A program made the translations under genes and the position numbers. A model generated the notes under the pieces. The model did not search any database. It saw nothing but the letters and a program-made list of their open reading frames with translations, and had not been told where the DNA came from. 64,000 nucleotides of DNA from Spirochaetia bacterium (GTDB lineage Bacteria > Spirochaetota > Spirochaetia > UBA9216): the NCBI GenBank assembly GCA_963675665.1, contig OY776510.1:3488001-3552000 (forward strand), read 5' to 3'. Of the stretch, positions 23,201-45,560 are shown in pieces. Each line of letters opens with the position of its first letter. Within the stretch, counting starts at the first letter, position 1.

Positions 23201-24265
23201 ATGAATATAAAAATAACTTTAAAAAATGATGATTTAATTGAACTCACCTGTCCATATAATACAGAATTAATATCTGTAGTTAAAAAAATACCGGGAAGAA
23301 GGTGGCATCCGGACAGGAAGCTTTGGACATATCCTAATAAAGATAAAAATACCCAATACCTGCTTGAATATTTATATAAAACAGGCTCTTCTTATTACGA
23401 CAAACAGAAAAATCTGCAAAAGAACACTAATATAATTACACCTCTTGAAAAAACTGTAAGATATTTGAGACTGAAAGAATACAGCCCCAAAACAATCTAC
23501 ACCTATAAAAAACATATAAACTGGTTTTTCCGGAGAACCGGTTTGGAGCCGAAGGATGTCCGTACCGAAGATATAATTTTATATCTTGAAAAAATCAAAA
23601 ATGTTGCCGGATGCTCCAGAACTTATGCTGTTCAATGCATAAGCGCTCTGAAATGTTTTTACAGCCGGGGATTTGATTCGTGGTTCAATCCGGCTGACAA
23701 TATTCCGCTGCCTAAGAAAGATCATAAGTTTCCGGATATTCTTTCAAGAAAAGAAATCTCGGATATACTGGAAATAACCGCTAATATTAAACACAAGTTT
23801 TTAATATTATTGATCTATTCCGCCGGCCTGAGGGTAAGCGAAGCTGTCAATTTAAAAATAAACGATCTGGATTTTGACAGAAAAATGATTCATATCAGAT
23901 CAGGAAAAGGTAAAAAAGACAGGTATGTAATGTTATCGGAAAAAGCTGTAAAACTATATTTAGATTACAATAAGCAGGTAATGTTACAAAACTGGCTCTT
24001 CCCAGGTCAGGATTATAACTCTCATTTAAGCATACGATCAGCACAATCAGTATTTATCAGAGCAACTGAAAAAACTGAAATACAAAAAAAAGTCAGCATA
24101 CATTCATTACGTCATGCATTTGCTACACATCTACTTGAAGACGGTGTAGATTTAAGATACATACAGGAGCTTCTGGGGCATAAAAGCAGTAAAACAACAG
24201 AAATATATACCCATGTAACAAAAGTAAGTATAAACCGCCTGAAAAGCCCTATAGACAGATGGTAA
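23201..24265 (+). CDS. Tyrosine recombinase (integron-integrase-like, lacking the I2 insertion)
   Basis: SAGLRVSE (R), GKGKKDR (K), HSLRH, LLGH, TEIYTHV (Y); SAM-like YSPKTIYTY domain; extra N-terminal KKIPGRRWHPDRKLW domain. Confidence 0.93.
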   Translation: MNIKITLKNDDLIELTCPYNTELISVVKKIPGRRWHPDRKLWTYPNKDKNTQYLLEYLYKTGSSYYDKQKNLQKNTNIITPLEKTVRYLRLKEYSPKTIYTYKKHINWFFRRTGLEPKDVRTEDIILYLEKIKNVAGCSRTYAVQCISALKCFYSRGFDSWFNPADNIPLPKKDHKFPDILSRKEISDILEITANIKHKFLILLIYSAGLRVSEAVNLKINDLDFDRKMIHIRSGKGKKDRYVMLSEKAVKLYLDYNKQVMLQNWLFPGQDYNSHLSIRSAQSVFIRATEKTEIQKKVSIHSLRHAFATHLLEDGVDLRYIQELLGHKSSKTTEIYTHVTKVSINRLKSPIDRW

Positions 24266-24280
24266 CCAAAATTTTGAAGG

Positions 24281-24330
24281 GTTATATGCATGTTATACAT
24301 GAAGATAAATTGAAGTTGAGGCGAAATAGC
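24281..24330 (+). other. Candidate attI-like primary site / start of cassette 1
   Basis: GTTGAGGCGAAATAGC (24315) mirrors the end of cassette 1 (GCTACATCGCCTAAC); GTTATA repeats at 24281 and 24292. Confidence 0.55.
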
Positions 24331-24357
24331 GAAATAAATAAAAATTGAGTTGGTTTA

Positions 24358-24675
24358 ATGAAAAAATATACAGGACATATTCCACCTTGTGGGATCTTTT
24401 GTGGAAGCTGTCCAAAATATAAAATTGATTGTGAAGGAGCAGAACATCATTGTAGTAGAGAAAATTGGGAAATGATTTATACATGTTGTGTTGAAAAAAA
24501 GAAATATAAATTTTGTTATGAATGTTATGACTATCCATGTTCATATTTCCACAATTTTTCAAAATCATGGCTTACTATTACAGACTCTAAAGATAATATT
24601 ATGGACAATCAAGTATTTATTAAAAATGATGGTCCTGAATATTTTTTGAAGAAAATGAATGAGAGGCTCAAATAA
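24358..24675 (+). CDS. Cassette 1: Cys-rich DUF3795-like protein
   Basis: PPCGIFCGSCP ... CEG ... CC..KK..FCYEC.DYPC pattern. Confidence 0.8.
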   Translation: MKKYTGHIPPCGIFCGSCPKYKIDCEGAEHHCSRENWEMIYTCCVEKKKYKFCYECYDYPCSYFHNFSKSWLTITDSKDNIMDNQVFIKNDGPEYFLKKMNERLK

Positions 24676-24688
24676 TATATGCTACATC

Positions 24689-24786
24689 GCCTAACAAGCG
24701 AATATGAGGCTACGGTGACAAGCACCTTCGCCCAAATAAACCTCCCATTCGGTCGGTTTACTTCTCATATTCGCAGGACGTTAGAT
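24689..24786 (+). repeat. attC-like site 1 (98 bp)
   Basis: GCCTAAC-aa-GCGAATATGAG ... CTCATATTCGC-aggac-GTTAGAT. Confidence 0.88.
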
Positions 24787-24856
24787 TGCAATTTCTGTCC
24801 TGGTTGGGATTATTTAAGGAAGAGCCCGCCTTCCGTGGCGGGCATGGAGATAAGAA

Positions 24857-25921
24857 ATGAATAATAAAGTATTATATTATCCAAGTATAGAATTTTATGA
24901 TGTTAGTTGGGTTAAAGCATCTCTATGTATTTGGGACAAAGTTTATAGAATTGTGCCTTCAACTTATATTCCCAATGATTGTTTAGAAATAGAAACATTT
25001 ATTAATCATGGACTAGTTGATAATATTAGTATTGAACAAAATGATTTATCAGAAACAGCTGATAATTTTATCGATTTTATTGAAAAAATACCAGGATTAC
25101 CTGCTGGCATTGAAGGATATGAAAAGATCAATTTGCACAAAGAAAAAGTAGATGATCGTATTCTGCCCATATTAGAAGCGATATCAGACAAATTTGAATT
25201 AGAATCATGGATACCTCTATCAAGACCGATAGTAAACGCTTACATGCTTTTTTTTGCAGAAACTATTTCAAGAAGAAGAAAAATGCCAAAGATTACTGAT
25301 AATGTCGACATGTATACAATAATGCATTATTTTATGGCAGATGGTAATATTGATGAATCAATAGGTTCACATGAACATAAAGAATATAGCATTAATCTTG
25401 TATTAGAAAATATTATACCAGCAGATATTAATACCGTATCACCTGAGATTATACTTAATTTCAGAGAAGCAACAGAAGATATTAGAGACACTTTTAGAAA
25501 CTATGTATATAATTTGATTGATGAAATAAAGTCTATTGAAAGTGAATCTTATGCAAAAGAAATAATAACTGATAGTATTTCTGATATTTCTAAAAATAAT
25601 TCATCGCAAAAAAGAGTTATTAAAGAATTAGGTATGAATTTCACTACATCATTTCTTTCAATAGGTATACCTACTACAATTTCGGCAATTGCACTTTTTT
25701 CAAATACAAATAATATATTTTCCATAAACGAAATAATGGGTTCAGTTTTCATTGGAGCAGTTGCGTCTATTGCAGATACAGTCCGCTCAAGAAGAAAAGA
25801 TTGGAGTTCAGAGGAATCACTTTTTATGCATGAATTAGATAGAAGATTTGATACTTATAGGAATTTCAGGCCAACAACTAATCGACATTTTAATATTTTA
25901 GAAGAATATATTAATGATTAA
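24857..25921 (+). CDS. Cassette 2, gene 1: DUF6236-like protein with hydrophobic C-terminal segments
   Basis: N-terminal VLYYPSIEF...W.K...WDKVYRIVP pattern recalled from DUF6236; family not verified. Confidence 0.6.
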   Translation: MNNKVLYYPSIEFYDVSWVKASLCIWDKVYRIVPSTYIPNDCLEIETFINHGLVDNISIEQNDLSETADNFIDFIEKIPGLPAGIEGYEKINLHKEKVDDRILPILEAISDKFELESWIPLSRPIVNAYMLFFAETISRRRKMPKITDNVDMYTIMHYFMADGNIDESIGSHEHKEYSINLVLENIIPADINTVSPEIILNFREATEDIRDTFRNYVYNLIDEIKSIESESYAKEIITDSISDISKNNSSQKRVIKELGMNFTTSFLSIGIPTTISAIALFSNTNNIFSINEIMGSVFIGAVASIADTVRSRRKDWSSEESLFMHELDRRFDTYRNFRPTTNRHFNILEEYIND

Positions 25922-25952
25922 TAAAGTAAATAAAACTTAAAAGGAGCATAGC

Positions 25953-27515
25953 ATGTCAGAAAAACTAATTCTAGATGCATTAATTACAAGAGAAGATTTT
26001 GAAATCTCTGACGAATTAGATATACCCACAACAGATATGAAAGATACTTTGTCAATTCAAGATTTAGAATATAATTCTTTTTTCTATCGTGCATTAAGAA
26101 AGCCTGATTTTCAAAGAGAGACTAGTGATTGGACTATTGAAAAAACATTTCAATTTATTGAAAGTTTTATTAATGGAGATTTAATACCTGCAGTTATTTT
26201 GTGGAAAAATAGTTCAGGTTTAATATTTGTAATAGATGGTTCTCATCGAATCAGCGCTTTATCTTCATGGATAAATAACGACTATGGGGATGGTCGTTAT
26301 TCAATAGAATTTTATAATAATCAAATTTCAAACCAACAGAAAAAACAAGCCCAAACAGCAAGAACAATAATTGATGCTACAATAGGTTCATATGATTCAT
26401 ATAAAAATATTGATACAAATCTAAAAGAAGAAAATTTAACGAAATATAAAAAGGCGATGCAGTTAGGTTCTACAGCTATTCAAATTCAATGGGTAAAAGG
26501 TGATTCTAAAAAAGCAGAGGAGTCATTTTTTAAGATAAATGAAAAAGCTTCTCCAATTGATAATACTGAAAAGAAGATTATTAAAAATAGAAACAAACCA
26601 ATTGGGATAGCTGCAAGAGCAATCATGAGAAGTGGTAGTGGATATAGATATTGGTCCAAATTTGATAATAAAAGAAAAAATGAAGTTGAGCAGCTTGCAA
26701 AAGACATAAATGATATGCTTTTCTTACCAGAATATACAACCCCTATTAAAAGTTTAGATTTACCGATTGGCGGAAAGATCTTATCGAATAAAGGTTTAGC
26801 ACTAGTTCATGATACAATAATGATATGTAATAATTTAAATGAAAAAGAATTAGAGAGAATAGTGGATGACAATGATGGGATAAATACTGTTAAATACTTA
26901 AAACGAACAAAAAGACTTTTATTGAGGATTAATAGTCAACATCCAGGCTCTTTAGGATTACATCCAGTTATATATTTTTATTCAATACGTGGTGTTCATA
27001 AAGTAGCCTCATATTATGGAATACTTGATTTTATTAATTATATAGAAGAAACGAATAGGTACAACGATTTTATAGAAATACGCGAGAAGTTTGAAAGAAT
27101 CTTATTAGATTATGAATTCCTGATACAACAAATAGTACGTCATGATAGGCAATCTATAAATGGATATAAAAATATTAAGGAATATTATTCTTTAATTATG
27201 GACTATTTATTACAAGGTAAAGAGATTGAGGAAGTAATTAAAATGATTCTTGATACTAAGAAGTTTTCATATCTTTCTATTGCAATTACTAAAATGGAAG
27301 AAACTAAAGCTAAAAAATTCTCAAGAGATAAAAAATCGATAATTTTTATCAAGGAAGGTTTAAAAACAATTCCTAAATGTGGTATTTGTGGCGGGGCGTT
27401 ACATTCAAAATCGATATCAATTGATCATATAGAAAGAAAACAGGATGGTGGAATTTCAATGATAGATAATGGCCAATTATCACATCCATATTGTAATACA
27501 ACATATAAAAATTGA
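25953..27515 (+). CDS. Cassette 2, gene 2: DUF262 (ParB-like) plus HNH nuclease, GmrSD-like
   Basis: KPDFQRE..W, VIDGSHRISAL, FFKIN; C-terminal CGICGG..SIDHI..NGQLSHPYCN. Confidence 0.85.
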   Translation: MSEKLILDALITREDFEISDELDIPTTDMKDTLSIQDLEYNSFFYRALRKPDFQRETSDWTIEKTFQFIESFINGDLIPAVILWKNSSGLIFVIDGSHRISALSSWINNDYGDGRYSIEFYNNQISNQQKKQAQTARTIIDATIGSYDSYKNIDTNLKEENLTKYKKAMQLGSTAIQIQWVKGDSKKAEESFFKINEKASPIDNTEKKIIKNRNKPIGIAARAIMRSGSGYRYWSKFDNKRKNEVEQLAKDINDMLFLPEYTTPIKSLDLPIGGKILSNKGLALVHDTIMICNNLNEKELERIVDDNDGINTVKYLKRTKRLLLRINSQHPGSLGLHPVIYFYSIRGVHKVASYYGILDFINYIEETNRYNDFIEIREKFERILLDYEFLIQQIVRHDRQSINGYKNIKEYYSLIMDYLLQGKEIEEVIKMILDTKKFSYLSIAITKMEETKAKKFSRDKKSIIFIKEGLKTIPKCGICGGALHSKSISIDHIERKQDGGISMIDNGQLSHPYCNTTYKN

Positions 27516-27658
27516 TAATTAATAAAAAATGTATTGGAATCATGAATTATCTACATGATTAATTTGAAAAGGAGTTAAGCATATAGAAAATGATTATAGG
27601 GTCAAATACATCCATGTATTTGACAATTAAGTATTAAAGCAACCATGAAAGAAACGGC

Positions 27659-27806
27659 ATCTAACAAGCAAATATGTAGCTCCGGCCATTCGGCCTGCGC
27701 CCAAATTGAAGCTAACGGAGAAGCGGAGCAGGACAGTCGGGTTTGCTCATTGACAAAACACTCCTTTGGCGGCGCTTCAACTTTACATATTCGCGGAACG
27801 TTATGT
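27659..27806 (+). repeat. attC-like site 2 (148 bp)
   Basis: ATCTAAC-aa-GCAAATATGTA ... TACATATTCGC-ggaac-GTTATGT. Confidence 0.85.
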
Positions 27807-27955
27807 GCAATTACCCCGCCCCTTTTTTGGGAGAAGAGATTGTATATAGGCAAACTGGCATCCGTGCCAGTTTGGAAATGTATAAACACACATCGCATCG
27901 CATAAAAAGGTGAGATTATAGAATTAAAATTTATTAGTATGCATAACAAGGAAGC

Positions 27956-28837
27956 ATGATAATGGAATGGTCTGAAAGAATGAATATGGCAATCGATTAT
28001 ATTGAAGATAATATTAAAAATGAGATACTGATTTCAGAAGTAGCAAATATAGCCAATTGTTCATCATTTCATTTTCAGCGAATGTTTTATGCAATCATTG
28101 GGATTACGCCTGCTGAATATATCAGACGACGAAGATTGACTTTAGCAGCCTCTGATCTCGCTGCTGGGAATGAAAAAGTCATTGATATTGCTCTGAAATA
28201 TGGTTATGAATCACCAAATGCGTTTACTAGAGCATTCCGGAATATGCATGGTATTAATCCACGAGAAGTGCGCAGCTCAGAGGTTAAATTATCGGCATAT
28301 AATCGTGTTTCTTTTCATATCGAAATCAAAGGAGGAAATGATATGGATTATAAAATAGTCGAAAAACCGTCTTTTGAATTGGTAGGGAAGAGTAAAAACT
28401 TTACACATGAAAACTTTTTTAAAGAAGGCCCTAAATTCTGGAAAGAATACGTATGTACAGATGAATACCAAGAGCTTTGGAATTTGACAAATGGTAGATG
28501 GGGAGAGGTGACTGATTCCCCTCTGATGTCTGTCTATTTGCCTAGTGAAAAAAATGATGAATCATTTATTGATATTCTTGGTGTTGAAAAGTCAGATAGT
28601 TTTAATAATCATAAATTTGAACTATTTCAGATACCAGCTGCTACCTATGCAGAATTTAATTGTACTTATCAGACTTCTGCAAAAATGAATAAATTTATTT
28701 ACGGTGAATGGCTTCCTTCAACCGGTTATGAAAGGGATACTCAAAAAGCTGATATTGCAGCTTATTTCCCAGTAGCTTTTATGTCAACAAAAGGGATGGG
28801 GGTACGATGGTGGATACCAGTGGTTAAGAGAAAGTGA
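27956..28837 (+). CDS. Cassette 3: AraC-family regulator with GyrI-like effector domain
   Basis: MEWSERMN.AIDYIE, SSFHFQRMF, EYIRRRRLTLAA, KYGYESPNAFTRAF. Confidence 0.92.
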   Translation: MIMEWSERMNMAIDYIEDNIKNEILISEVANIANCSSFHFQRMFYAIIGITPAEYIRRRRLTLAASDLAAGNEKVIDIALKYGYESPNAFTRAFRNMHGINPREVRSSEVKLSAYNRVSFHIEIKGGNDMDYKIVEKPSFELVGKSKNFTHENFFKEGPKFWKEYVCTDEYQELWNLTNGRWGEVTDSPLMSVYLPSEKNDESFIDILGVEKSDSFNNHKFELFQIPAATYAEFNCTYQTSAKMNKFIYGEWLPSTGYERDTQKADIAAYFPVAFMSTKGMGVRWWIPVVKRK

Positions 28838-28909
28838 AAGAGATTTCAAGCAAAACATCGTGTTTTGCTTGAAGAATTCTCTTAAGAAAGACCGGGGCGG
28901 GGAAACTGC

Positions 28910-29001
28910 ATCTAACAAGGGTTACACGCTCCGGCCATTCGGCCTGCGGGCTGCGCCACATTCGGCTGCGCCGAACGTCGTGTAACCCTGGAACGTTATA
29001 C
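28910..29001 (+). repeat. attC-like site 3 (92 bp)
   Basis: ATCTAAC-a-AGGGTTACACG ... CGTGTAACCCT-ggaac-GTTATAC; nearly identical to site 4. Confidence 0.9.
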
Positions 29002-29079
29002 AAAATGTTCCCGCTAAGAGGAAGACGCCCGGACCTCCGGCCGACGGGCTAAAAGAGAGTTTAAGATTAAGGAATCAAG

Positions 29080-29859
29080 ATGGAAAAAGAGTTTACCGGA
29101 AATGAAATTGGATTAAATGGAGAAGCTCAAATAAAGATAGCTATCAAAACTATCTCTGATCTTGGTGGGAAAGCAGAAATGAAGGATTTATATTCTGCTT
29201 TAGAGAATGAAATGCGAGGAAAGAAACTCTCCAATCAAGGAAAGGCAAGTTTCAGATTTTTTGTGAATAAGGTCGCTGTAAAAGCAGGATTGATTTATCC
29301 GTATGACAAAAATAATCCGGGGTGGATGTTGACTCCGGCTGGTAAAGAATATCTGAAGAATGAAGAGATTAATGAAATAACAGTAAATACGGATACAAAT
29401 GAAGAAGAGGTAACTTTATCTAATTCGGCAAGAGGTTTAGCTTTTGAATTATACGCTCATGATTTTCTAAAGACATTATATCCAAGTTTTGTGTGGCATC
29501 ATCAGGGGCTTTATAAAACAACTGAAAGAGGTTTGGATTTTATAGGAGATAAACTTGGGGATCAAAATTCAGATGTTCGAACCATTGGTGTTCAGGTTAA
29601 GTTTCATAAAGAGAAAAATTCGCCAACTCAGATTGAATGGTTAAAATTTCTATCTGGTTGTTTTGCGCGCAGAGTAGATTTAGCAATATTTATCACAACA
29701 GGTAGATTGTCGAGTGCTCAATATCGAGAGGCGAGGGAATCAAATGTTATAGTTATTCAAGGAAAGGATGAGATAACAAGGATTGCAAAACAGAATAATT
29801 TAAAGAAGTTTGATTTATTTGGAAGTGAAGAGGAAGGAGAGGCTTCAGAAGAAGGATGA
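29080..29859 (+). CDS. Cassette 4: Mrr-like restriction endonuclease
   Basis: N-terminal winged helix (GWMLTPAGKEYL), then FE, GLD, GVQVK, IFITTG..S Mrr_cat motifs. Confidence 0.82.
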   Translation: MEKEFTGNEIGLNGEAQIKIAIKTISDLGGKAEMKDLYSALENEMRGKKLSNQGKASFRFFVNKVAVKAGLIYPYDKNNPGWMLTPAGKEYLKNEEINEITVNTDTNEEEVTLSNSARGLAFELYAHDFLKTLYPSFVWHHQGLYKTTERGLDFIGDKLGDQNSDVRTIGVQVKFHKEKNSPTQIEWLKFLSGCFARRVDLAIFITTGRLSSAQYREARESNVIVIQGKDEITRIAKQNNLKKFDLFGSEEEGEASEEG

Positions 29860-29921
29860 AGAGTTAAGATGTTCAAGCCTTGACTCCGCCGTGCGGCTTG
29901 AACGAAGAGCGGGAACACTTC

Positions 29922-30013
29922 GTATAACAAGGGTTACACGCTCCGGCAATTCGGCCTGCGGGCTGCGCCACATTCGGTTGCGCCGAACGTCGTGTAACCC
30001 TGGAACGTTAGCT
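29922..30013 (+). repeat. attC-like site 4 (92 bp)
   Basis: GTATAAC ... GTTAGCT; body differs from site 3 at two positions. Confidence 0.9.
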
Positions 30014-30105
30014 GAAATGCCCCGCTAAGAGGAGAACGCCCGGACCTCCGGCCGACGGGCTAAACTGAATAGGAAATTAATAATAAATTAAAATATGGAG
30101 TTAGT

Positions 30106-30954: not shown

Positions 30955-31034
30955 TGAAATATTATAGATTTGAAAACTTTGGTAGCCAGTCCTTGACTCC
31001 GTCGCACGGACTGGTTTAAGAGCGGGGACACTTC

Positions 31035-36722: not shown

Positions 36723-36728
36723 GTACGT

Positions 36729-37346: not shown

Positions 37347-37367
37347 AGAAGAAAGCCGTAATACTTC

Positions 37368-37462
37368 AGATAACAGGGGCTATGTGCTTCGTCGCTATGC
37401 GCTCCTCGGGCTGCGCCACATACGGCATTCGCCGTACGTCGTATATCCGCGGAACGTTAGAC
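37368..37462 (+). repeat. attC-like site 9 (95 bp, arms mismatched)
   Basis: AGATAAC-a-GGGGCTATGTG ... CGTATATCCGC-ggaac-GTTAGAC; body like site 7. Confidence 0.82.
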
Positions 37463-37496
37463 GAAAGATATAAAGGTCGACGGGCTTGAATGAGAT

Positions 37497-38306: not shown

Positions 38307-38559
38307 CGAAAAAGAAATAAGTTTGGAGAATATTATGACCGAGATACTATATACGATTAATATTTAATTTCCTTAGAGATGGAAAAAACTTATTGTCCAG
38401 GCATGTGAAAAAAATATGAAGATGAAAATGATTCATTGTAGCTGGTTGAAGAGTGATGGTTTTAAGCAGATAGTCAGTTATAAAAAGGGGTGCTATAATA
38501 ATCAAAGAAACCAGACCTTGACATCGCCGTGCGGTCTGTTTGAAGAGCCAAAACTCTTG

Positions 38560-38636
38560 CTATAACAGGGGCTATGTGCTCAGCCCATTCGGCCTTCGGG
38601 CTGCGCCGAACGTCGTGTAACCCTGGAACGATAGGA
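38560..38636 (+). repeat. attC-like site 10 (chimeric; right core has lost TT)
   Basis: Left arm of site-7 type, right arm of site-3 type; ends GGAACG-ATAGGAA instead of GTTATAGGAA. Confidence 0.78.
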
Positions 38637-38660
38637 ACTAGTTTTTAAGAGATTATTACG

Positions 38661-39155
38661 ATGAAAGAGAAGTACCAAATCCAAATAGCCGATAAGAATG
38701 ACCAAGAATTTCTTTATGAGATGCTTTACCAATCAATTTATGTAGAGCCAGATTCACCGAAACCTGATAGACAAATAATTGATATTCCAGAAATATCAAA
38801 ATATGTCGCAAACTGGGGAAAGCAAGGAGATTACGCTTTAATTGCTTTAGATGAAAATGGAACTAAAATAGGTGCAGTTTGGCTCCGATACTTTGATGTA
38901 AATAACAAGGGATATGGATTCATTAACGATCAGATACCTGAGATAGGTATCGCTGTAGAAGAAAAGAGCCGTGGGAATGGTATTGGGTCATTCTTATTAA
39001 ATGAAATATTGAAAAGAACGAAAAATGAAATAGAATCAATTTCATTAAGTGTTCAACCGAATAATCCAGCAATGGATTTATATTCTCGATTCGGTTTCTA
39101 TGAATGTGGAAAAGAAGGGGACTCTGTAATAATGAGATATGATAACGAGGCATGA
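38661..39155 (+). CDS. Cassette 11: GNAT acetyltransferase
   Basis: GAVWLR, GYGF..PEIGIAV, RGNGIG, SLSVQPNNPAMDLY.RFGF. Confidence 0.92.
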   Translation: MKEKYQIQIADKNDQEFLYEMLYQSIYVEPDSPKPDRQIIDIPEISKYVANWGKQGDYALIALDENGTKIGAVWLRYFDVNNKGYGFINDQIPEIGIAVEEKSRGNGIGSFLLNEILKRTKNEIESISLSVQPNNPAMDLYSRFGFYECGKEGDSVIMRYDNEA

Positions 39156-39165
39156 AAACTACTTC

Positions 39166-39281
39166 CTATAACAGTGAGTATATGCTACGTTCGGCTATCG
39201 CGCCTCACTTGGGCTGCGCCACATTTTTTCTTTTTCCTGCTCCGCTTCGCCCGCTTATCGGGAAAAGAAAAAACGTTATAT
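39166..39281 (+). repeat. attC-like site 11 (right inner arm deleted)
   Basis: CTATAAC ... GGGCTGCGCCACA TTTTTTCTTTT/AAAAGAAAAAA c GTTATAT; no partner for the left arm. Confidence 0.72.
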
Positions 39282-39302
39282 GCAATGCATAACGAGAAAG
39301 AA

Positions 39303-39800
39303 ATGATTGTATTAGAAAAATTTGAAAAAGATAACATTCCCCAATTACTATCTTGGCTTGAAGACACGGATGCAAAATTCCTTTTACAGTTTGCTGGACC
39401 CATATATTTATTCCCATTGAATGAAAAACAACTCATGGAAACTTTGGATTCAAAAGATTATTTATTGCTTCGGGCAATCGATACCAAAGCCGGGAATATA
39501 ATCGGTCATTGCCAATTTATGAGAGTTGATAAAAATAAACAACAAGCATCCATTGGTAGAATCCTTATTAATCCTAATTTCAGAGGGAAAGGATTTGGAG
39601 TACAACTCATAAATGAAATGAAAATCTTTGCCAAAGATAAATTAAATCTATTGAAGATTGATTTACGTGTTTTTGATTTCAACACTGCAGCTTTACATTG
39701 TTATTCTAAAGCTGGGTTTGTTAAAACCTCTGTACATGAAAACCATATTCCTGAGTTCAATGAAACTTGGAAAATTATTACAATGGAATGTTCTCTCTGA
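39303..39800 (+). CDS. Cassette 12: GNAT (RimJ-like) acetyltransferase
   Basis: RILINPNFRGKGFG, LRVFDFNTAALHCY.KAGF; real start MIVLEKF. Confidence 0.9.
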   Translation: MIVLEKFEKDNIPQLLSWLEDTDAKFLLQFAGPIYLFPLNEKQLMETLDSKDYLLLRAIDTKAGNIIGHCQFMRVDKNKQQASIGRILINPNFRGKGFGVQLINEMKIFAKDKLNLLKIDLRVFDFNTAALHCYSKAGFVKTSVHENHIPEFNETWKIITMECSL

Positions 39801-39824
39801 CCCTCTATTCTCGTTGGTCAATGA

Positions 39825-39971
39825 ATCTAACAAGCGAATATGCGGTTCCGATTCGCTCCACTCAAATTGCTTCTTTGATAATCTCTGATAAAAGTATGCT
39901 ATACTTTTCCCAGATATTATTAAGCTCTCAAGTGGCCGAAGCACCTTCGCATATTCCGCAGAACGTTATAT
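39825..39971 (+). repeat. attC-like site 12 (147 bp)
   Basis: ATCTAAC-aa-GCGAATATGCG ... CGCATATTCCGC-agaac-GTTATAT. Confidence 0.85.
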
Positions 39972-40080
39972 GACATATTCTTGAGATGGATATAATATAC
40001 AGAAAATAAAAGAGGAGTACTTAATGTCTACAATATTATTTGATTTCTTTAGATAAACATAAAAATATAAGGAGTCAATA

Positions 40081-40827
40081 TTGTCGTATTTTAATTTTCA
40101 AGGAAAGAAAATATTTTATTCAGTTAAAGGAGAAGGTCCTCTTCTGATAGTTTTACCAGGTAACACAGCTACATCTGCTGCACATGAGCATGAGTTAAAT
40201 TATTTTTCAGATAAGTATTGCACTGTTTCCCTAGATTTTCTGGGAACTGGAAAATCAGACAGAATGAAGCAATGGGATAGCGGTTGGTGGGAAGCCTGTA
40301 GTAACCAAGTTAAAGCATTAGTTGAGCATCTTAATTATAAAGAGGCGATTCTTCTTGGCATAAGTGGCGGTGCTATTATAGCAATTTCTGCCGCTATAAA
40401 TCATTCTGAATATGTTAAAGCAGTTGTTGCAGATAGCTTTTCATTGCATTTTACGGAAGAAATGTATAAAAACAATGTCTTAAATGAAAGATCTAATTTA
40501 TCTGAAGAACAACAAATGTTCTGGTCATCAATGCATGGTTCAGATTGGAAAGATGTTATAACTGCTGATACAGAAATGATTGGAATGGTTGTTAAGGAAG
40601 GAGGATCTTGTATCAAGAGCCAACCAGAAAAGATAAAATGTCCTGTTTTGCTGACATATTCAGAAGAAGATAGTTTTCTTCCAAATGTAAAAGAAATTGC
40701 TGCAGATTTAGAAAAGAAGATTAGCAATTGTGAGATTAAAATATTTTCAAATGGAGATCATCCTCTAATTTGGACAAATCCTACGGATTTTTTTCAATCC
40801 GTTGATAGATTTCTATTAAAAATATAA
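40081..40827 (+). CDS. Cassette 13: alpha/beta hydrolase
   Basis: LDFLGTGKS, GISGG nucleophile elbow, ED, GDH. Confidence 0.9.
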   Translation: MSYFNFQGKKIFYSVKGEGPLLIVLPGNTATSAAHEHELNYFSDKYCTVSLDFLGTGKSDRMKQWDSGWWEACSNQVKALVEHLNYKEAILLGISGGAIIAISAAINHSEYVKAVVADSFSLHFTEEMYKNNVLNERSNLSEEQQMFWSSMHGSDWKDVITADTEMIGMVVKEGGSCIKSQPEKIKCPVLLTYSEEDSFLPNVKEIAADLEKKISNCEIKIFSNGDHPLIWTNPTDFFQSVDRFLLKI

Positions 40828-40879
40828 AGAAAATTTGTGGGCTATTTCGATGGCCCGCATTCAATAACAAGAATAAGTC

Positions 40880-41051
40880 ACATAACAGCGTGGATCAAGG
40901 GCCTTGCCGTCCCTGGCAAGGATAAAGAAAAGTCGACAAAACGCACACATTGTAATAATTTACTATTATGAAGCTTTTTGATTGGGATGAAAAGAAGAAT
41001 TCAGAATTAAGAAAAACGCGTGATATAAACGGAAGATTGGTTGAATCAAGC
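40880..41051 (+). pseudogene. Truncated site 13 fused to a remnant BrnT-like toxin cassette
   Basis: ACATAAC at 40880 without right half; ATG 40968 gives MKLFDWDEKKNSELRKTRDI, then deleted. Confidence 0.62.
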
Positions 41052-41145
41052 AGATAACAGGGGCTATTTGCATCGTCGCTATGCGCTCCTCGGGCTGTGC
41101 CACATACGGTTGCGCCGTACGTCACATAACCTCGGAACGTTATGC
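41052..41145 (+). repeat. attC-like site 14 (94 bp)
   Basis: AGATAAC-a-GGGGCTATTTG ... CACATAACCTC-ggaac-GTTATGC; site-7 family. Confidence 0.87.
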
Positions 41146-41197
41146 GAAATCTCGAACCTAAAAAAAGAAGATGCTTGCCATCCTTTGCAAGCAAAGA

Positions 41198-41230
41198 TTG
41201 ACGGAGTGTAGTAATTACTATATAATTACT
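41198..41230 (+). promoter_or_regulatory. mazEF promoter/operator
   Basis: TTGACG-17bp-TATAAT with AGTAATTA...TAATTACT palindrome. Confidence 0.8.
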
Positions 41231-41246
41231 TTAGTTGAGGTATAAT

Positions 41247-41495
41247 ATGTTAATTTCAGTGGTTCCTATAGGCAATTCAAAAGGAATTCGGATTCCTAAG
41301 AGCATTTTGCAGCAATTAAATATTGAAGAAAAAGTCGAATTGGAAGTTCATAATACAGAAATATTGATACGGCCAATTAAGAAAAAGCCGAGAGAAGGAT
41401 GGTCCGAAGAGTTTATGAAAATGCATCAAAATGGTGATGATTCTTCACTTGTGGACAATTTAACAGGTCAGGATGATTTTGAATGGGAATGGTAA
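41247..41495 (+). CDS. mazE: Cassette 15: AbrB/MazE antitoxin
   Basis: IGNSKGIRIPK, PREGW, FEWEW. Confidence 0.9.
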   Translation: MLISVVPIGNSKGIRIPKSILQQLNIEEKVELEVHNTEILIRPIKKKPREGWSEEFMKMHQNGDDSSLVDNLTGQDDFEWEW

Positions 41496-41812
41496 TCCAT
41501 CAATACGAAGTGTATTTGATAAACTTGGATCCGACTGTTGGTCATGAAATAAAAAAGACAAGACCTTGTTTAGTTATTTCACCAAACGAGATGAATGAAT
41601 CGATCCAGACTATTATAATCGCTCCAATGACAACGAAATCACATCCATATCCAACTCGAGTACCAATTAAATTTGAAAAGAAAGATGGATGGATTGTTTT
41701 AGATCAATTAAGAACAATTGATAGAAAGAGATTAATTAAAAAAATTGGAAAGATAAATAAAAAAGAAGTTGAACTCGTCAAGAATGTACTCCAGGAAATG
41801 TTAATAGATTAA
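41483..41812 (+). CDS. mazF: Cassette 15: PemK/MazF toxin
   Basis: LDPTVGHEIKKTRPCLVISP, APMTT, LDQLRTIDRKRL. Confidence 0.94.
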   Translation: MGMVIHQYEVYLINLDPTVGHEIKKTRPCLVISPNEMNESIQTIIIAPMTTKSHPYPTRVPIKFEKKDGWIVLDQLRTIDRKRLIKKIGKINKKEVELVKNVLQEMLID

Positions 41813-41861
41813 AGCCAATCAACATCCTTGTTGCTTGGCTTTGAAGAAGGTTTGTGACTAC

Positions 41862-41949
41862 GCATAAAACAGCAGAATATGAGGCTCCAGCCATTCTGCT
41901 GTCGCCTAAATCGACTATGTCGACTTCGCATATTCGCGGAGTGTTATAT
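41862..41949 (+). repeat. attC-like site 15 (left core has AA insertion)
   Basis: GCATAAAAC-a-GCAGAATATGAG ... CGCATATTCGC-ggagt-GTTATAT. Confidence 0.75.
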
Positions 41950-42108
41950 GAAAATTACTGGGACATCAAATAATAATAGGTGTATATTTGTTGCGTACGG
42001 ATAAGCGTACGGGGATGTGGAATGAGTAGTATAAATGTAACAAATGCCAGAAAAGATCTTTACAATTTAGTACAAAGGGTAAATTCAACGTAAGCGGTAA
42101 TTCTTACC

Positions 42109-43662
42109 CTATGCCTTAATCAGCCCAGGAGTCAGGTTGAACGGAAGCAGTGCTTCATAATCAGCCGGTGTTTTGCAATTTGGAAGCTGTCTGAAAACGT
42201 AGTAGAAATAATCATAGACCGAGAGGTTCTGCATTTTAGCTGATTCAACAAGGCTGTACAAAATTGCTGAAGATTCGGCGCCGTGTTCTGTATCGGAAAA
42301 CAACCAATTCTTCCTGCCGATCACAAAAGGCCGGATTGCGTTTTCGGCAATGTTGTTAGACGACGTAAGCAGCGGGTCTTCCAAATACAAGTTTAACTGC
42401 TTCCAATTATCCAGCGTATAGGCAATAGCTTTCCCGAAGGCAAGTGTAGGCGGCGTTGCCGCTGCATATTGTGTCAGTAATTCAAATAAGGATTTCAGAA
42501 TCGGAGAAGCCCTGTTCGTCCGTTGTTTTTGAAACCCTTTCTTAGAAAAATCAGCTCTTAAATCTTCAAGCTCAAAAAGTTTCTTAATCAATTCGAGTAT
42601 CTGTTTTGCATCCGGAGATTTAGACAGCTCCCAATACTTGTAGAAATATCTACGGGCATGAGCCCAGCACAAAACATGACGAATAGATTTATTTCCTTCA
42701 TCGCTTAGTTTTTTCAATGCAGTGTGATAAGCCTCATAATCATCAGTCTGCAGCCAGCCGGAATATTCTTGCAGGAAATCATACGGAACTTTATGAGAGC
42801 GGCTTGTTTCATACTGAAACACAACAGATTTTTTATCAGTCTCTCCACCAAGAAATACCCACATCCAGGATTTATCCTGTGCTTTACGACCTTTTTCTTT
42901 CAAAACCTGCACCCGGGTTTCATCAGCATTGATTACTGGACCGTTTTTAATATTATCTTTAAGCAGCTCATATAGCGGCTTGCATCTTTCAGCGCATTTA
43001 ATTGCCAATGTGCTCAGTGTTGCACGTGGAATATCCGCACCTATCGCATTCAACCTCTTACTCTGTCGATAAAACGGCAGCGCATATTCAAACTTCTCAT
43101 TTATAATCCATGCAAGCAGGCTTTCATCGGCAATACTTCCGGAAATGAGGTGTTTAATCCCTTCTGCTGTCTGTACTCCGGATGAATCATCAGTTGTTCC
43201 TTCACAATTTCGGCAGACATATTTTTTCTTTATCTCACGTCTGACGACTACTTTCGCAGGAACGATGCAGAGTCGTTCAGATACATCTTCACCTATACAA
43301 ACCTTCTCGGTACCACAGGCACAGGTTTTATCTTCTTCATCGATATCGTATTCAACAATCTCGCGAGGCAGGTCTTCAGAAAGCGCTTTTCTTCCCGAGT
43401 TCTTTCGAACTGTTTTTGTGTGGGCTTTTACTTCAAGGGTTTCTGATTCTATTTCATCCTGCTGCTCAAATGCGGAATCTTCTGCTTCGTTGAAAAGGGA
43501 CGCCTGCTTCTTATCTTCACTGGTAAATTTCTCAGATTTTGTTCCGAAGTGAAGAGTCTGCAGGAGGTGTACCAGTTCTTTCAATTCGGTAATCTGATTA
43601 TCCTGATTTTGGACTGTTTGTTTGAGTTGAGCAATTTCGTTAAGCAAGGCTTCAGTACTCAC
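42109..43662 (-). CDS. tnpC: IS66 transposase TnpC
   Basis: FGTKSEK, ADET, CWAHARR, NNIAENAIRP..IGRKNWLF. Confidence 0.95.
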   Translation of the reverse strand: MSTEALLNEIAQLKQTVQNQDNQITELKELVHLLQTLHFGTKSEKFTSEDKKQASLFNEAEDSAFEQQDEIESETLEVKAHTKTVRKNSGRKALSEDLPREIVEYDIDEEDKTCACGTEKVCIGEDVSERLCIVPAKVVVRREIKKKYVCRNCEGTTDDSSGVQTAEGIKHLISGSIADESLLAWIINEKFEYALPFYRQSKRLNAIGADIPRATLSTLAIKCAERCKPLYELLKDNIKNGPVINADETRVQVLKEKGRKAQDKSWMWVFLGGETDKKSVVFQYETSRSHKVPYDFLQEYSGWLQTDDYEAYHTALKKLSDEGNKSIRHVLCWAHARRYFYKYWELSKSPDAKQILELIKKLFELEDLRADFSKKGFQKQRTNRASPILKSLFELLTQYAAATPPTLAFGKAIAYTLDNWKQLNLYLEDPLLTSSNNIAENAIRPFVIGRKNWLFSDTEHGAESSAILYSLVESAKMQNLSVYDYFYYVFRQLPNCKTPADYEALLPFNLTPGLIKA

Positions 43663-43700
43663 ATAAGAATTTTACCACGGTTAAATTCGAGTGTGAAGCC

Positions 43701-44045
43701 CTAAACGCGGGAATAATTTAATTGCTTATGCGCTTTAAAGAAATCTATTCCATCAAGCAGCATCTTCAACTCTTCGAACTTTATCTCCCTCGCGTCTTCT
43801 TCCGTTTCCGGCCAGGGGAACTTATTCTTTTCAAGTCTTTTCTGCCAAAGACAGAATCCGTTCCGATCCCAGTAAACGATTTTAAGCAGCTTTCTTTTGC
43901 CGTTGCAGAATAGAAACAGACTTTTTGAGAACGGGTCGTTCTGCATTATATTCTGAATCTGCAGGCTCAGACCGTTCACACCTTTTCGTAAATCAGTTTT
44001 CCCGGGTCTGACGAAGTAACGGTATTCTGAGTAATCGATAATCAT
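43701..44045 (-). CDS. tnpB: IS66 accessory protein TnpB
   Basis: TDLRKGVNGL, LKIVYWDRNGFCLWQKRLE..FPWP. Confidence 0.95.
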   Translation of the reverse strand: MIIDYSEYRYFVRPGKTDLRKGVNGLSLQIQNIMQNDPFSKSLFLFCNGKRKLLKIVYWDRNGFCLWQKRLEKNKFPWPETEEDAREIKFEELKMLLDGIDFFKAHKQLNYSRV

Positions 44046-44341
44046 TCGAGCTCCCCGATTACTTTAAGAACTGATTTCAGCCCGGCTTCATCAAATCCGG
44101 CAGTTATTGATATTAAGAACTTTTTGGTTTTTATAACTATTGGGGCGGCTGAGAAGATTCCATTTGGTTTTATTTCAACAACTGAAGAACTTCCGGGTGC
44201 TTCCTGATTGCCAATAATTTTCCTGTTTTTATAAAACGTGTTTGGATGAATCCCGATCTCTTTACAGAACTCTAAAATCGTCTTACCGCTTTGCTGTTGT
44301 TGCTCAATGACTTCTTCCCAATTATTTATTACCTTTCGCAT
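44042..44341 (-). CDS. tnpA: IS66 accessory protein TnpA
   Basis: W...QQQSGKTI.EFC.E.GI...TFY HTH. Confidence 0.85.
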   Translation of the reverse strand: MRKVINNWEEVIEQQQQSGKTILEFCKEIGIHPNTFYKNRKIIGNQEAPGSSSVVEIKPNGIFSAAPIVIKTKKFLISITAGFDEAGLKSVLKVIGELE

Positions 44342-44651
44342 TTATTTCCTCCTGGTTAATAATTCCGGAGGATAATACATTTTTATATTTTAGCAAGAAG
44401 GTAAGAATTACCGCTTACAATTCAACTCATGAACCTGTAGAAATCACCGGCAAAGAATCTAATGCGATTTTGATAGGTGAAGAAGATTGGCGTAGCATAC
44501 AGGAGACACTCTATCTTTCTACTGTCCCTGGTATGAGAAAATCAATAATCGAAGGCATGAAAACAAAAGCGAAAGAAGTCCTAAAAATCCTTAAAGAAGA
44601 ACCATTTCAAGATTATCCGCCTTATGAGAAACTTATTGGTGAGGTGAAATC

Positions 44652-44985
44652 TTGAATATTGTTGAAAATCCAAATCAAGAGCAATATCCAGGGCAGAGAT
44701 TTTTTATTTTAGATATCAATGAATATATTTATTGCGTTACATTTGTTGAAGATGAAAAGACGGTTTTCCTTAAAACCATAATTCCAGGTCGCAAATACAC
44801 AAGAAAGTATTTATGAGGAAAGAAAGATGAAAAACAATCTGACTCGAGAAGAAATCAATATTATTGAAGATATGGAATCTGGAAAAACTGTTTCAATTAT
44901 GGATTTGAAGAAAGAAAAGAAGAGATATAGTGAATATACAGCAAAAACTGTAAGAAAAGATAAAAGAGTTAATATCCGAATAAGT
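44652..44985 (+). pseudogene. BrnT-like toxin C-terminal fragment plus truncated RHH antitoxin
   Basis: IVENPNQEQYPGQ..FVEDE..FLKTIIP.RKYT; ORF 44827 KDKRVNIRIS runs into a half site. Confidence 0.7.
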
Positions 44986-45027
44986 ATACGACTACGCCGT
45001 ATATCTCATAACCCCGGGACGTCAGCC
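44986..45027 (+). repeat. Right half of attC-like site 16
   Basis: ATACG..CGCCGTA..CATAACCCCGGGAC-GTCAGCC; site-7 family with GTT changed to GTC. Confidence 0.72.
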
Positions 45028-45049
45028 GCAATTGAATAGGATGTGATTA

Positions 45050-45421
45050 ATGAAAAGTCGAAATGAATTTGATTTGCCCCAAGCCATCCAGGAATGGGGT
45101 TGGAAATTCCATCACGTAGGGATTCCAACAAATGAAAAAAAGATGAACGAAGAATACCTAAAAAAATTTAAATTTTCAGTATCGGGTTTTTCAGAGAGTC
45201 CTTTTGGTATTGAATGGATGAGATTTGAAGCTGAATGTGAAATGCCAGAAATAATACAGCAAGTACCACACTTGGCATTTGTTGTAAATGATCTTGATTT
45301 TGAATTGAAAACAAAAAATTTTAAAATACTGATAGAACCGAATCCTCCTATGAAAGGAATCAGAGTTGCCATGATAGAGCATAATGGAGCGCCAATAGAA
45401 TTGATGGAATTAACTACGTGA
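45050..45421 (+). CDS. Cassette 17: VOC/glyoxalase-like protein
   Basis: FHHVGIPT, PHLAFVV.DL, GAPIELME. Confidence 0.85.
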   Translation: MKSRNEFDLPQAIQEWGWKFHHVGIPTNEKKMNEEYLKKFKFSVSGFSESPFGIEWMRFEAECEMPEIIQQVPHLAFVVNDLDFELKTKNFKILIEPNPPMKGIRVAMIEHNGAPIELMELTT

Positions 45422-45432
45422 AATTAATCTGA

Positions 45433-45560
45433 AACCAACTAGGGAATATCCGATAAGCCAAAACGAGCTTGGTAACAGGCTATATTTTTCTCAAATAAGT
45501 CATTATCATCGACATTTAACAAGGATTTGATTAGAGGTCATCACTCCACTCCGCTGTGAA
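45433..45560 (+). repeat. Degenerate remnant of a giant-type site (site 17)
   Basis: AGGGAATAT and TATTTTTCT....TTATCATCG.CATTTAACA match site 5; right boundary approximate. Confidence 0.55.

Follow-up and report, generated by a model that had tools for sequence, protein, structure and literature searches.

Canonical chromosomal integrons, as described by Cury 2016 (PMC4889954), consist of an array of ORF-plus-attC cassettes headed by an integrase. Each attC site is an imperfect palindrome that contains R''/L''/L'/R' boxes and has TAAC...GTTA as its core, the R' of one site is complementary to the R'' of the site after it, the bottom strand folds more stably than the top, and toxin-antitoxin pairs, GNAT and Cass2 proteins, and restriction enzymes are common cargo. 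All of these features recur in the array analyzed here. The same source counts 50 non-IntI recombinases adjoining attC sites; in 29 of these cases, the genome encodes an IntI at another place. Also close are the reverse-orientation integrons of Treponema and other Spirochaetota (PMC3607928, PMC9668308), which share with the present locus the host phylum and the common direction of integrase and cassettes; the integrase gene reported for Treponema by Wu et al. 2013 (PMC3607928) encodes ~410 aa. The integrases of these accounts are classed as IntI, whereas the recombinase described below lacks the IntI insertion, a segment that Escudero and co-workers tied to single-strand recombination.

The locus lies in a 64-kb window (the whole stretch of DNA analyzed, to which all coordinates refer) of a Spirochaetia genome designated G000. 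Judged from its sequence and from comparison with relatives, it is probably a sedentary chromosomal integron-like platform whose integrase is the co-oriented 354-aa recombinase at its head and not a canonical IntI. Its leading features are as follows.

23158..23186, + strand: sigma-70-like promoter 5' of the recombinase gene, TTGACA / 17 nt / CATAAT (consensus match only, 11/12)
23201..24265, + strand: tyrosine recombinase, 354 aa, without the IntI insertion (ORF translation and domain matches)
24278..24319, + strand: candidate attI, GGGTTATATGCATGTTATACATGAAGATAAATTGAAG/TT, with two GTTATA..CATG direct repeats; motif just 3' of the stop codon, kept in 4/5 genomes
24320..45560, + strand: cassette array, ORFs mostly on the + strand

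The recombinase comprises a HARP-like N-terminal domain (residues 1-66), a SAM-like core-binding domain (~82-158), and a catalytic domain (181-341). It is matched by PF00589 (143 bits) and by Phage_int_SAM_4, while the integron-integrase model TIGR02249 yields 190.8 bits, under its 265-bit cut-off, in an alignment split into two segments (4-169 and 235-314 of the profile), indicating that the insertion region of the model is skipped. The spacing between GKGKKDR and WLFP is exactly 23 residues, compared to 54 in the canonical IntI that G000 also encodes. The preliminary description was thus correct that the IntI-specific insertion is missing, and the outcome it predicted was obtained: PF00589 matched, and the IntI models missed the protein because the insertion is absent. 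In a phylogenetic tree, the recombinase clusters with IntI, apart from the XerC/D-like genes of G000 (100/100 support), and falls outside the IntI clade, with the branching of its own clade relative to IntI left unresolved. The solved structures closest by sequence are XerA enzymes (4a8e, E = 7e-37; 5hxy, E = 1.5e-34).

The co-oriented array had been proposed to start ~50 nt after the recombinase stop codon, and the first cassette boundary does fall there, at the motif conserved in 4/5 genomes. Beyond the GAGTT of the candidate attI, the sequences of the compared genomes diverge, and the bases that follow are the complement of the first attC R'', exactly in G003, whereas the window, G006, and G002 each show a 1-nt indel. 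No terminator-like site was found in the interval that separates the recombinase gene from the first cassette. A covariance model trained on 11 window sites recovered 12 sites at E < 1e-5; they span 24689 to 41949 and are without exception on the + strand, and the runner-up in the 64 kb has E = 0.56. The attC-like boundaries of the preliminary description stand; set against its ~17 cassettes, the count here is ~15 sites, namely, 12 strong, one truncated by an insertion sequence (IS), and two partial. Sites of this model are called type a, and those of a second structural class type b.

24689..24786, + strand: attC type a, site 1, 61.3 bits (covariance model), folded
27659..27806, + strand: attC type a, 72.9 bits
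28910..29001, + strand: attC type a, 87.5 bits
29922..30013, + strand: attC type a, 84.7 bits
31035..31342, + strand: composite, type-b attC (31121-31253) nested in a type-a loop; type a 34.5 bits, type-b profile 102 bits
32761..32901, + strand: attC type a, 70.2 bits
33685..33779, + strand: attC type a, 75 bits
34716..35016, + strand: second composite, type b at 34802-34947, L' box interrupted by the IS3 element
35017..36326, - strand: IS3-family IS, inverted repeats TGAACCGCCCCGGG, ALIL pseudoknot match 106 bits
36327-36660: IS remnant directly after the IS3 element
37368..37462, + strand: attC type a, 65.3 bits
38560..38636, + strand: attC type a, R' = GATA, 58.8 bits
39825..39971, + strand: attC type a, 50.6 bits
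41052..41145, + strand: attC type a, 69.1 bits
41864..41949, + strand: attC type a, 72.5 bits
42089..44418, - strand: IS66-family element, three ORFs, inserted within the array, 78% identical to a copy at L011
44990..45027, + strand: partial type a, L'-R' half only, GTCAG replacing GTTAG, 12.4 bits, E = 1.3
45470..45560, + strand: degenerate last site, 5' part of a composite (family D12), array end

The cassettes encode DUF3795, GmrSD+HNH, AraC-Cass2 fusion, Mrr, HTH, PIN/Phd, GNAT (two), alpha/beta hydrolase, and MazEF products, contents that are typical for chromosomal integrons. The PIN/Phd cassette (36661-37362) has 96.7% nucleotide identity to a cassette in G002, despite only 53% protein identity between the recombinases of the two genomes, suggesting cassette transfer.

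The folding of the sites bears on how they may be read. The type-a bottom strand folds exactly as an 8-bp stem, a 4x0 bulge, and an 11-bp stem in 25/62 sites, with 10 close variants, and no single-base bulge occurs in these 35 folds; type b shows two 1-nt bulges on the 3' arm (2/2 sites folded). The outer 3 nt of R' are complementary to the R'' of the following site in 49/62 adjacent pairs, compared to 16/68 sites for the control against their own R''. Among homologous cassettes, the downstream attC body is usually retained (0.95-1.0 identity), the upstream body ranging from 0.24 to 1.0. By these sequence relationships, the arrays bear the integron cassette signature. Exceptions with a differing downstream body are the MazEF and PIN/Phd cassettes and L106 segments 10 and 15, and a single R' crossover fails to explain these exchanged bodies.

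Two crossover points would easily explain them, as in a classical double-strand Xer-type reaction in which the recombinase would run the array on short core sites with no folded single strand. Such a reaction would also suit an enzyme without the insertion linked to single-strand recombination, the XerA enzymes as closest solved relatives, and the TAAC-N4-GTTA present at the R''-L'' junction of several sites. However, L'' and L' vary widely among sites and remain complementary, with 6/9 pairs altered on both sides and 84% of L-box cells paired, as opposed to 24-41% with partners slid. Together with the R''/R' complementarity within the same cassette and a bottom strand more stable than the top in 61/62 type-a sites, this argues against the Xer-type reaction, since a double-strand reader has no need of pairing or strand bias; it is considered unlikely.

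An explanation that also seems improbable is that the array is served in trans by a canonical IntI, either one encoded 1 Mb away or one since lost, with the adjoining recombinase as a bystander or accessory. The preliminary description had held that a canonical IntI encoded at another place in the genome, if it accounted for the array, would count against the recombinase. Such an enzyme is literally present, with a score of 392 bits, and one was found in 8/11 genomes of the order; moreover, Cury 2016 reached this very conclusion for the non-IntI recombinases adjoining attC that it lists. That this IntI accounts for the array was not borne out. Codon 69 of the G000 intI is an in-frame TAG, whereas an orthologue of 98% identity encodes W at this position; the G006 canonical IntI is split over two frames. 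In both genomes, the member of the window's recombinase family is intact. The G000 IntI is of the long type (orthologue P0122, 418 aa), but it is divergent from its own array, which consists of structurally different, type-b attC sites. Both the premature TAG and this difference in attC type argue that it does not account for the window array.

The two site types segregate by recombinase. In the canonical IntI arrays compared (G000, G002, and G003), there are 14, 10, and 11 type-b sites, respectively, and type-a sites number none in G000, one strong and two weak in G002, and none in G003 apart from one 15-bit match. Conversely, arrays of the window-type recombinase contain 12 type-a sites in the window and, counting fetched DNA only, 3 in G009, 9 in G006, 23 in G003, and 17 in G002; their type-b sites number 2, 1 (weak), 0, 1, and 4, respectively, and 7/7 strong ones are nested within type-a composites, composites like that at 31035..31342 being present also in G002 and G003. 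Type a thus accompanies the window recombinase family, and type b the canonical IntI of the same genomes. The type-b sites inside the window array, which favor a trans-acting IntI, and the one type-a site in the G002 canonical array indicate that the systems are not fully separate. G000 also contains a CALIN, a group of attC sites without an integron integrase, that is made up of type-a sites (G000:C1:3906578-3919105).

Linkage in relatives likewise argues for the adjoining recombinase. As anticipated in the preliminary description, homologues are linked to co-oriented arrays: orthologues (53-63% identity) head type-a arrays in 4/4 related genomes with sequence (G009, G006, G003, and G002), where all strong site matches lie downstream on the strand of the recombinase gene. 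Full-length homologues (39-45% identity) occur in 26/400 other genomes sampled from the phylum; among 17 distant loci fetched, 10 have site-model matches, 25/25 of which are downstream and co-oriented, and a cruder scan revealed long arrays at L151 and L159. No sites were found in the 14 kb downstream of the L149 homologue, and six more loci had no site-model match, the downstream sequence being under 1.5 kb in four. Adjacency and orientation are retained down to 39% identity. None of the 26 homologue-bearing genomes has a canonical IntI above the TIGR02249 cut-off, yet arrays with the cassette signature adjoin the homologue, and one of the 26, G320, a single 4.9-Mb contig with no canonical IntI by the same model, has at least 12 sites; both findings argue that canonical IntI is not the source of the array. 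Outside the phylum, insertion-less recombinases head a co-oriented 9-site array in Ignavibacteriota (L016) and lie divergent to 3-4 sites in Patescibacteria (L048), and canonical IntI was found in 0/4 genomes of such relatives.

That the gene is instead the integrase of a mobile element targeting arrays or attI, or a dimer resolvase beside the array by descent alone, is very doubtful: IS elements do accumulate in the array, and the order comprises only 11 genomes, so that synteny there could be inherited, but separate XerC/D-like genes exist outside the recombinase clade, the head-of-array position is seen again in Ignavibacteriota as well as in several of the phylum's families, and no element boundaries surround the gene, which is flanked by chromosomal DNA that is conserved within genera.

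The N-terminal domain is HARP-like, as had been suggested, on the basis of a PF07443 match at residues 15-48 (27.5 bits, cut-off 25) and of structural matches of the predicted domain (pLDDT 87). VIA-align gave Z = 7.0 with the UvsW N-domain, 6.1 with the XPB DRD, and 4.7 with SMARCAL1 HARP, values below 8 that for a 66-residue domain may mirror a common fold; the SMARCAL1 HARP superposition has an rmsd of 1.6 over 48 residues, with 27% identity. HARP, UvsW N-terminal, and XPB damage-recognition domains bind branched DNA and have the beta-beta-alpha-beta-beta-alpha fold of the recombinase domain; they are joined to helicase or translocase motors, whereas here the domain is joined to a tyrosine recombinase, a fusion for which a literature search found no published report. 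The L016 and L048 recombinases are without it and yet lie beside arrays, indicating that it is dispensable for array linkage. An Undinarchaeales homologue (L015) has the domain, its contig stopping at the gene.

By analogy with IntI, the recombinase would bind the attC bottom strand in its folded form, in which the R stem has 8 bp, the L stem has 11 bp, and a 4-nt bulge lies on the R'-L' side. This bulge, conserved as GGAAC/GGGAC, may set polarity, a role that for IntI falls to two flipped-out bases read by the insertion. Cleavage would occur in the R' box at GTTA, with strand exchange to attI or another attC, and replication would resolve the junction, as for IntI. The N-terminal domain may bind either the attI direct repeats or a junction, whether branched or between single- and double-stranded DNA, and, again as with IntI, transcription started at the recombinase promoter would read through into the cassettes.

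Compared to canonical integrons, then, the window recombinase has no insertion, lies outside the IntI clade and under the IntI cut-off, carries an additional HARP-like domain, and is co-oriented with its cassettes, with a candidate attI 3' of its stop codon; in its attC sites, a one-sided 4-nt bulge replaces the two single flipped-out bases of canonical ones. The archaeal integrons of Ghaly et al. 2022 (PMC9668308) resemble it in having attI directly 3' of a same-direction integrase, but the additional domain that this source attributes to IntIs, archaeal ones included, is missing from the window recombinase. XerA, XerC, and XerD (4a8e, 5hxy, and 1a0p) share its two-domain fold, whereas it heads a cassette array, carries one more domain at its N terminus, and clusters with IntI. 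The insertion-less enzyme and its array linkage favor the earlier reading of a distinct cassette system, for which a literature search found no published description. The same layout in relatives without an ordinary integron integrase suggests that a second kind of integron, overlooked by current tools, probably exists. Under the IntegronFinder definition given in Cury 2016, the window array would count as a CALIN, since it has no IntI-type integrase in its vicinity; unlike a CALIN, it has an intact, conserved adjoining recombinase and an attI-like site, and is thus probably a complete system.

The P0001 gene, which encodes a 354-aa tyrosine recombinase (23201-24265, plus strand) and heads the cassette array of the window, probably specifies the integrase of a second integron type, one in which this enzyme lacks the insertion found in IntI. 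The genome, G000, is one contig of 5.15 Mb, of which the window is C1:3488001-3552000; the sources named for its closest protein relatives put it among Spirochaetales. In Pfam searches, P0001 matched the PF00589 catalytic domain (143.4 bits, residues 181-341) and a SAM-like core-binding domain, and the catalytic R, HxLRH, and Y were seen in the alignment. Its best NCBIfam match was NF040815 ("site-specific tyrosine recombinase/integron integrase"), exactly at the cut-off of 220, while TIGR02249 (integron integrase) gave 190.8 bits, below its cut-off of 265, and NF011946 gave 130.8 bits against a cut-off of 435. The TIGR02249 match was split in two, with profile positions 170-234 skipped; 23 residues separate GKGKKDR from WLFP, and P0001, at 32% identity to the canonical IntI of G000, has ~46 residues fewer at the insertion point. 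The IntI-specific additional domain (about 35 residues, I2 helix, near patch III) is absent from P0001.

At its N terminus (residues 15-48), P0001 matched the HARP domain (PF07443) in Pfam at 27.5 bits, above the gathering threshold of 25. Thus, the missing insertion, the PF00589 match, and the HARP-like N-terminal domain that a preliminary description had claimed or expected from the sequence were all borne out. The full-length P0001 model (pLDDT 85) matched VchIntIA and XerA equally well. Modeled alone (pLDDT 87), the N-terminal domain gave Z scores of 7.0 with the T4 UvsW N-domain, 6.1 with the XPB damage-recognition domain (DRD), and 4.7 with the HARP domain of SMARCAL1 (4o66_A; 27% identity and an rmsd of 1.6 across 48 residues), a possible likeness in fold; a Foldseek search with this domain returned no match at E ≤ 0.001. 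HARP, UvsW N-, and XPB damage-recognition domains bind branched DNA.

For the phylogeny, a tree of 49 rows and 298 columns was used, from which the insertion and N-terminal columns had been dropped and four rows left out (two short, one long, and one near-duplicate). IntI is monophyletic in this tree (10 rows, support 100/100) and does not include P0001, which belongs to a distinct clade of 12 rows (97/95). A larger clade of 46 rows (100/100) takes in both and leaves out the XerC/D-like genes of G000 (C1:3981803 and 3986551), which are outside the P0001 clade, and the tree gives no resolved order inside these 46 rows, including that of IntI relative to the P0001 clade. Patescibacteria, one Firmicutes, and one Woesearchaeota protein adjoin IntI with weak support (80/70).

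Repeats downstream of the P0001 gene have the attC layout: their R and L boxes pair, and the loop varies. A covariance model of these type-a sites (R1), built from 11 window sites, recovered 12 window sites at E < 1e-5, all on the plus strand within 24689-41949, the next match having E = 0.56. In the L box, six of nine pairs are altered on both sides, and 84% of cells pair, versus 24-41% with slid partners. The window array comprises ~15 sites, including one cut by an IS and two that are partial, and ends near 45560; it is interrupted by an IS3 element (35017-36326), by the remnant of another IS, and by an IS66 element. Searches of the window with Rfam at gathering thresholds returned nothing but the IS3 ALIL pseudoknot. 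Cassette products comprise toxin-antitoxin pairs, GNAT enzymes, nucleases (GmrSD and Mrr), hydrolases, and an AraC-Cass2 fusion, a content typical of a chromosomal integron. Defense genes have been reported as stored in chromosomal integrons, and the three cassette genes located here fit that description:

25953-27515, GmrSD-HNH nuclease cassette gene
27956-28837, AraC-Cass2 fusion cassette gene
29080-29859, Mrr-like nuclease cassette gene

With at least two attC sites and no IntI-type integrase nearby, the window array counts as a CALIN, for the only reason that the adjacent P0001 fails the IntI definition. No homologue of the recombinase lies within 50 kb of a third cluster in G000, with 3-4 type-a sites on the minus strand (C1:3906578-3919105), which is for this reason a true CALIN; the cluster holds an IS66 copy 78% identical to that of the window.

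The order to which G000 belongs is represented by 11 genomes, 10 of which have a P0001 match at E ≤ 1e-60 and eight a canonical IntI above cut-off. Each of the four orthologues for which flanking DNA was available (53-63% identity) lies at the head of a co-oriented type-a array; the fetched DNA contains 3, 9, 23, and 17 type-a sites. Full-length homologues (39-45% identity) occur in 26 of 400 other sampled genomes of the phylum; none of these 26 has a canonical IntI above cut-off, and their best IntI-profile matches are the P0001 homologues themselves, in two pieces. R1 matches were found in 10 of 17 fetched loci, all 25 of them downstream of the gene and on its strand. Downstream arrays, which the preliminary description had set as a test for homologues, were therefore found with all four of the flanked orthologues and with 10 of these 17 distant loci. 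A crude palindrome scan indicated long arrays in two further loci (L151 and L159); its matches in the AT-rich locus L050 were rejected as false (folds of -6 to -12 kcal/mol, no signature). Six loci are site-less: four have less than 1.5 kb downstream, one has 2.3 kb, and L149 has no sites in 14 kb. One genome, G226, carries three copies of the insertion-less recombinase (C6, C7, and C1), one with an in-frame TAA. Outside the phylum, a relative from an Ignavibacteriota MAG (316 aa, with neither the insertion nor the HARP-like domain) heads a co-oriented array of nine sites with junctions complementary over 9 nt, and one from a Patescibacteria MAG (270 aa, without the insertion) is divergent to 3-4 sites; none of the four tested genomes with such relatives has a canonical IntI. 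Among the matches listed, homologues occur in Firmicutes, Dehalococcoidia, and archaea too, with Natronincola and Selenihalanaerobacter among the named isolates, and a wide locus search yielded, again among the matches listed, a scatter of Xer-like genes in place of closest kin, with five R1 matches at E ≤ 1 over 79 loci.

A canonical IntI working in trans could also account for the window array, and the preliminary description had named such an enzyme elsewhere in the genome, if it accounted for the array, as evidence against its proposal. One is indeed present in G000 (C1:4525383-4526315, 392 bits), but it is divergent from an array of its own, with 14 type-b sites of ~135 nt each, and codon 69 of its gene is TAG (C1:4525266; 1384-1386 of the fetched locus L001), where a 98%-identical 418-aa orthologue has W. 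With filters off, R1 detected no type-a site across the 34 kb that surround this gene. The canonical arrays of G000, G002, and G003 contain 14, 10, and 11 type-b sites, respectively; type-a matches number none in G000, one strong (plus two weak) in G002, and none (plus one 15-bit match) in G003. P0001-type arrays total 64 type-a and seven strong type-b sites, and all seven of the latter are nested in composite type-a loops. Site types segregate by recombinase in these arrays, and action of the canonical IntI in trans on the window array is considered improbable. From a later TTG start, the G000 intI gene would still encode its core and catalytic portions in full (339 aa), and the canonical intI of G006 is split over two frames. 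Spirochaetota canonical IntIs (P0122, P0124, P0160, and others) are about 400-420 aa long, with an N-terminal extension of 80-100 residues that has no Pfam match and is unrelated to the HARP-like domain.

The two site families also differ in architecture. Type-a sites were rebuilt as in their own excised cassettes and the bottom strands folded (n = 62). Exactly the same fold was obtained for 25 of these: an 8-bp R stem, four bulged nucleotides on the 5′ (R′-L′) arm with nothing opposite (4x0), and an L stem that runs uninterrupted for 11 bp; a further ten are near-variants (4x0 followed by 8 bp, or 3x0 followed by 11 bp). Bulge and R′ together read GGAAC/GGGAC-GTTA in nearly all type-a sites. 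The type-b fold is 6 bp, 1x2, 6 bp, 0x1, 5 bp, 0x1, and 7 bp, so that two bases bulge out singly from the 3′ arm of each of the two folded sites, which we take to be the canonical extrahelical-base pattern of the VchIntIA-VCR structure (PDB 2A3V). In that structure, the IntI insertion is reportedly the part contacting the extrahelical bases. No extrahelical single bases, an integron criterion, were found in the folded bottom strands of these exact and near-variant type-a sites. Thus, an enzyme lacking the insertion adjoins sites lacking such bases.

An alternative is that P0001 runs the array by a double-strand, Xer-like reaction. The bottom strand was the more stable in 61 of 62 type-a sites, by a mean of 4 kcal/mol, and we regard a double-strand reaction as quite unlikely. 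If P0001 is the integrase of a second integron type, its mechanism may be a single-strand one, in which both the type-a bulge and the HARP-like domain may have a role.

Composite sites, in which a complete type-b attC lies inside the loop of a type-a attC, are kept across genera and were seen solely in arrays of the insertion-less recombinase; such a site might leave one cassette open to both enzymes. Their locations are as follows:

31035-31342, composite site, window
34716-35016, composite site, window
5521-5843, composite site, L107 (G002)
6762-7085, composite site, L107
8041-8367, composite site, L107
12157-12479, composite site, L107
9668-9992, composite site, L106 (G003)

Directly 3′ of the recombinase stop codon, four of five genomes share GGGTTATATGCATG.TATAC..G..ATAA.T.TGAGTT, a candidate attI. 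The sequences part ways 3′ of GAGTT, where each continues with the complement of the R″ of the first attC, exact in G003 (GTTATGC versus GCATAAC) and off by a 1-nt indel in G002, G006, and the window. Judging by sequence, the sole strong promoter-like site lies 5′ of the recombinase gene, and nothing resembling a terminator was found between this gene and cassette 1.

Over six arrays, the outer three bases of R′ at one site complement R″ of the next site in 49 of 62 adjacent pairs, and R″ of their own site in 16 of 68 cases. At least 12 sites with this R′/R″ signature are present in G320, a single contig of 4.9 Mb and one of the 26 genomes above that lack a canonical IntI. When homologous cassette segments were compared (44 pairs), identity was usually 0.95-1.0 for the downstream attC body and spanned 0.24-1.0 for the upstream one; the cassettes are therefore ORF-plus-attC units. 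Exceptions are cassettes whose downstream attC body is swapped, one ORF being followed by different bodies. Two cassettes shared with G002 had pointed to an upstream attC travelling with the ORF and crossover at R″, a view that the systematic comparison overturned as the general rule, since the upstream similarity in these two reflects a common site subtype.

Cassettes are shared between genera. Between the window and G002, identity reaches 96.7% for the PIN/Phd cassette (36661-37362) and 88% for the MazEF cassette, the two recombinases being only 53% identical. Two window cassettes (36661-37362 versus L107 15906-16607, and 41051-41858 versus L107 14982-15788) have a differing downstream attC body in the other genus, and the identity of both stops directly 3′ of R″ (CAGATAACA). 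These differing bodies are not what one crossover within R′ would produce. One array (L106, G003:C9:469001-489000) contains a cassette of ~400 nt about ten times, with three alternative attC bodies. In contigs of four public runs, compared at 90% likeness in mixed samples, the GTTA of the 32898 site is joined to the cassette start near 24801 (X3), and 31331 is joined to 24788 (X1 and X3, one contig each). These junctions could be cassette-order variants, a hint at most given the 90% likeness in mixed samples.

Several cassettes carry at their 5′ end, ~20 nt past R′, a conserved motif, GACGCCCGGACCTCCGGCCGACGGGC, which is found in both kinds of array and at very high depth in one metagenome run; as an RNA structure it was rejected, its fold being no better than shuffled sequence (z = +0.97, +0.79, and -0.49). 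It is located as follows:

29020-29050, GACGCCCGGACCTCCGGCCGACGGGC motif, window
30031-30061, GACGCCCGGACCTCCGGCCGACGGGC motif, window
33798-33828, GACGCCCGGACCTCCGGCCGACGGGC motif, window
about 2200-2260, GACGCCCGGACCTCCGGCCGACGGGC motif, L107
repeat family D11, GACGCCCGGACCTCCGGCCGACGGGC motif, L009

A broader and more tentative reading is that the IntI insertion is dispensable for cassette recombination on folded attC sites and that a wide Xer-like clade runs integron-type platforms. If so, the range of such platforms would take in Spirochaetota, Ignavibacteriota, and Patescibacteria, homologues being present also in Firmicutes, Dehalococcoidia, and DPANN archaea; many arrays filed as CALINs would be complete integrons of the second type; the insertion would be a later specialization for flipped-out bases, not the origin of single-strand recombination; genomes like G000 would run two orthogonal integrons; and composite sites would be adapters for cassette passage between the two.

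Both the definition and the detection of integrons rest on the IntI-specific domain. Cury 2016 (PMC4889954) lists 50 non-IntI recombinases near attC sites and concludes that recombinases of this kind, lacking the domain, are not integron integrases. According to Ghaly 2022 (PMC9668308), typical Spirochaetota IntIs are reverse-oriented and archaeal IntIs have the additional domain. A literature search covering sources other than subscription journals and bioRxiv supplements found no account of attC arrays under an insertion-less or HARP-fused recombinase. If the P0001 family is an integrase, the integron census has gaps, some arrays classed as CALINs are mis-filed, a new structure-specific recombinase would become usable as a tool, and the view that single-strand recombination arose through acquisition of the I2 helix (Escudero 2016 and 2020) needs revision. 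In G000, a single cell naturally contains both enzymes and both site types, making their recognition rules directly testable. In known integrons, crossover inside R′ yields complementarity between R′ and the R″ of the next site, and the same pattern is found in P0001-type arrays.
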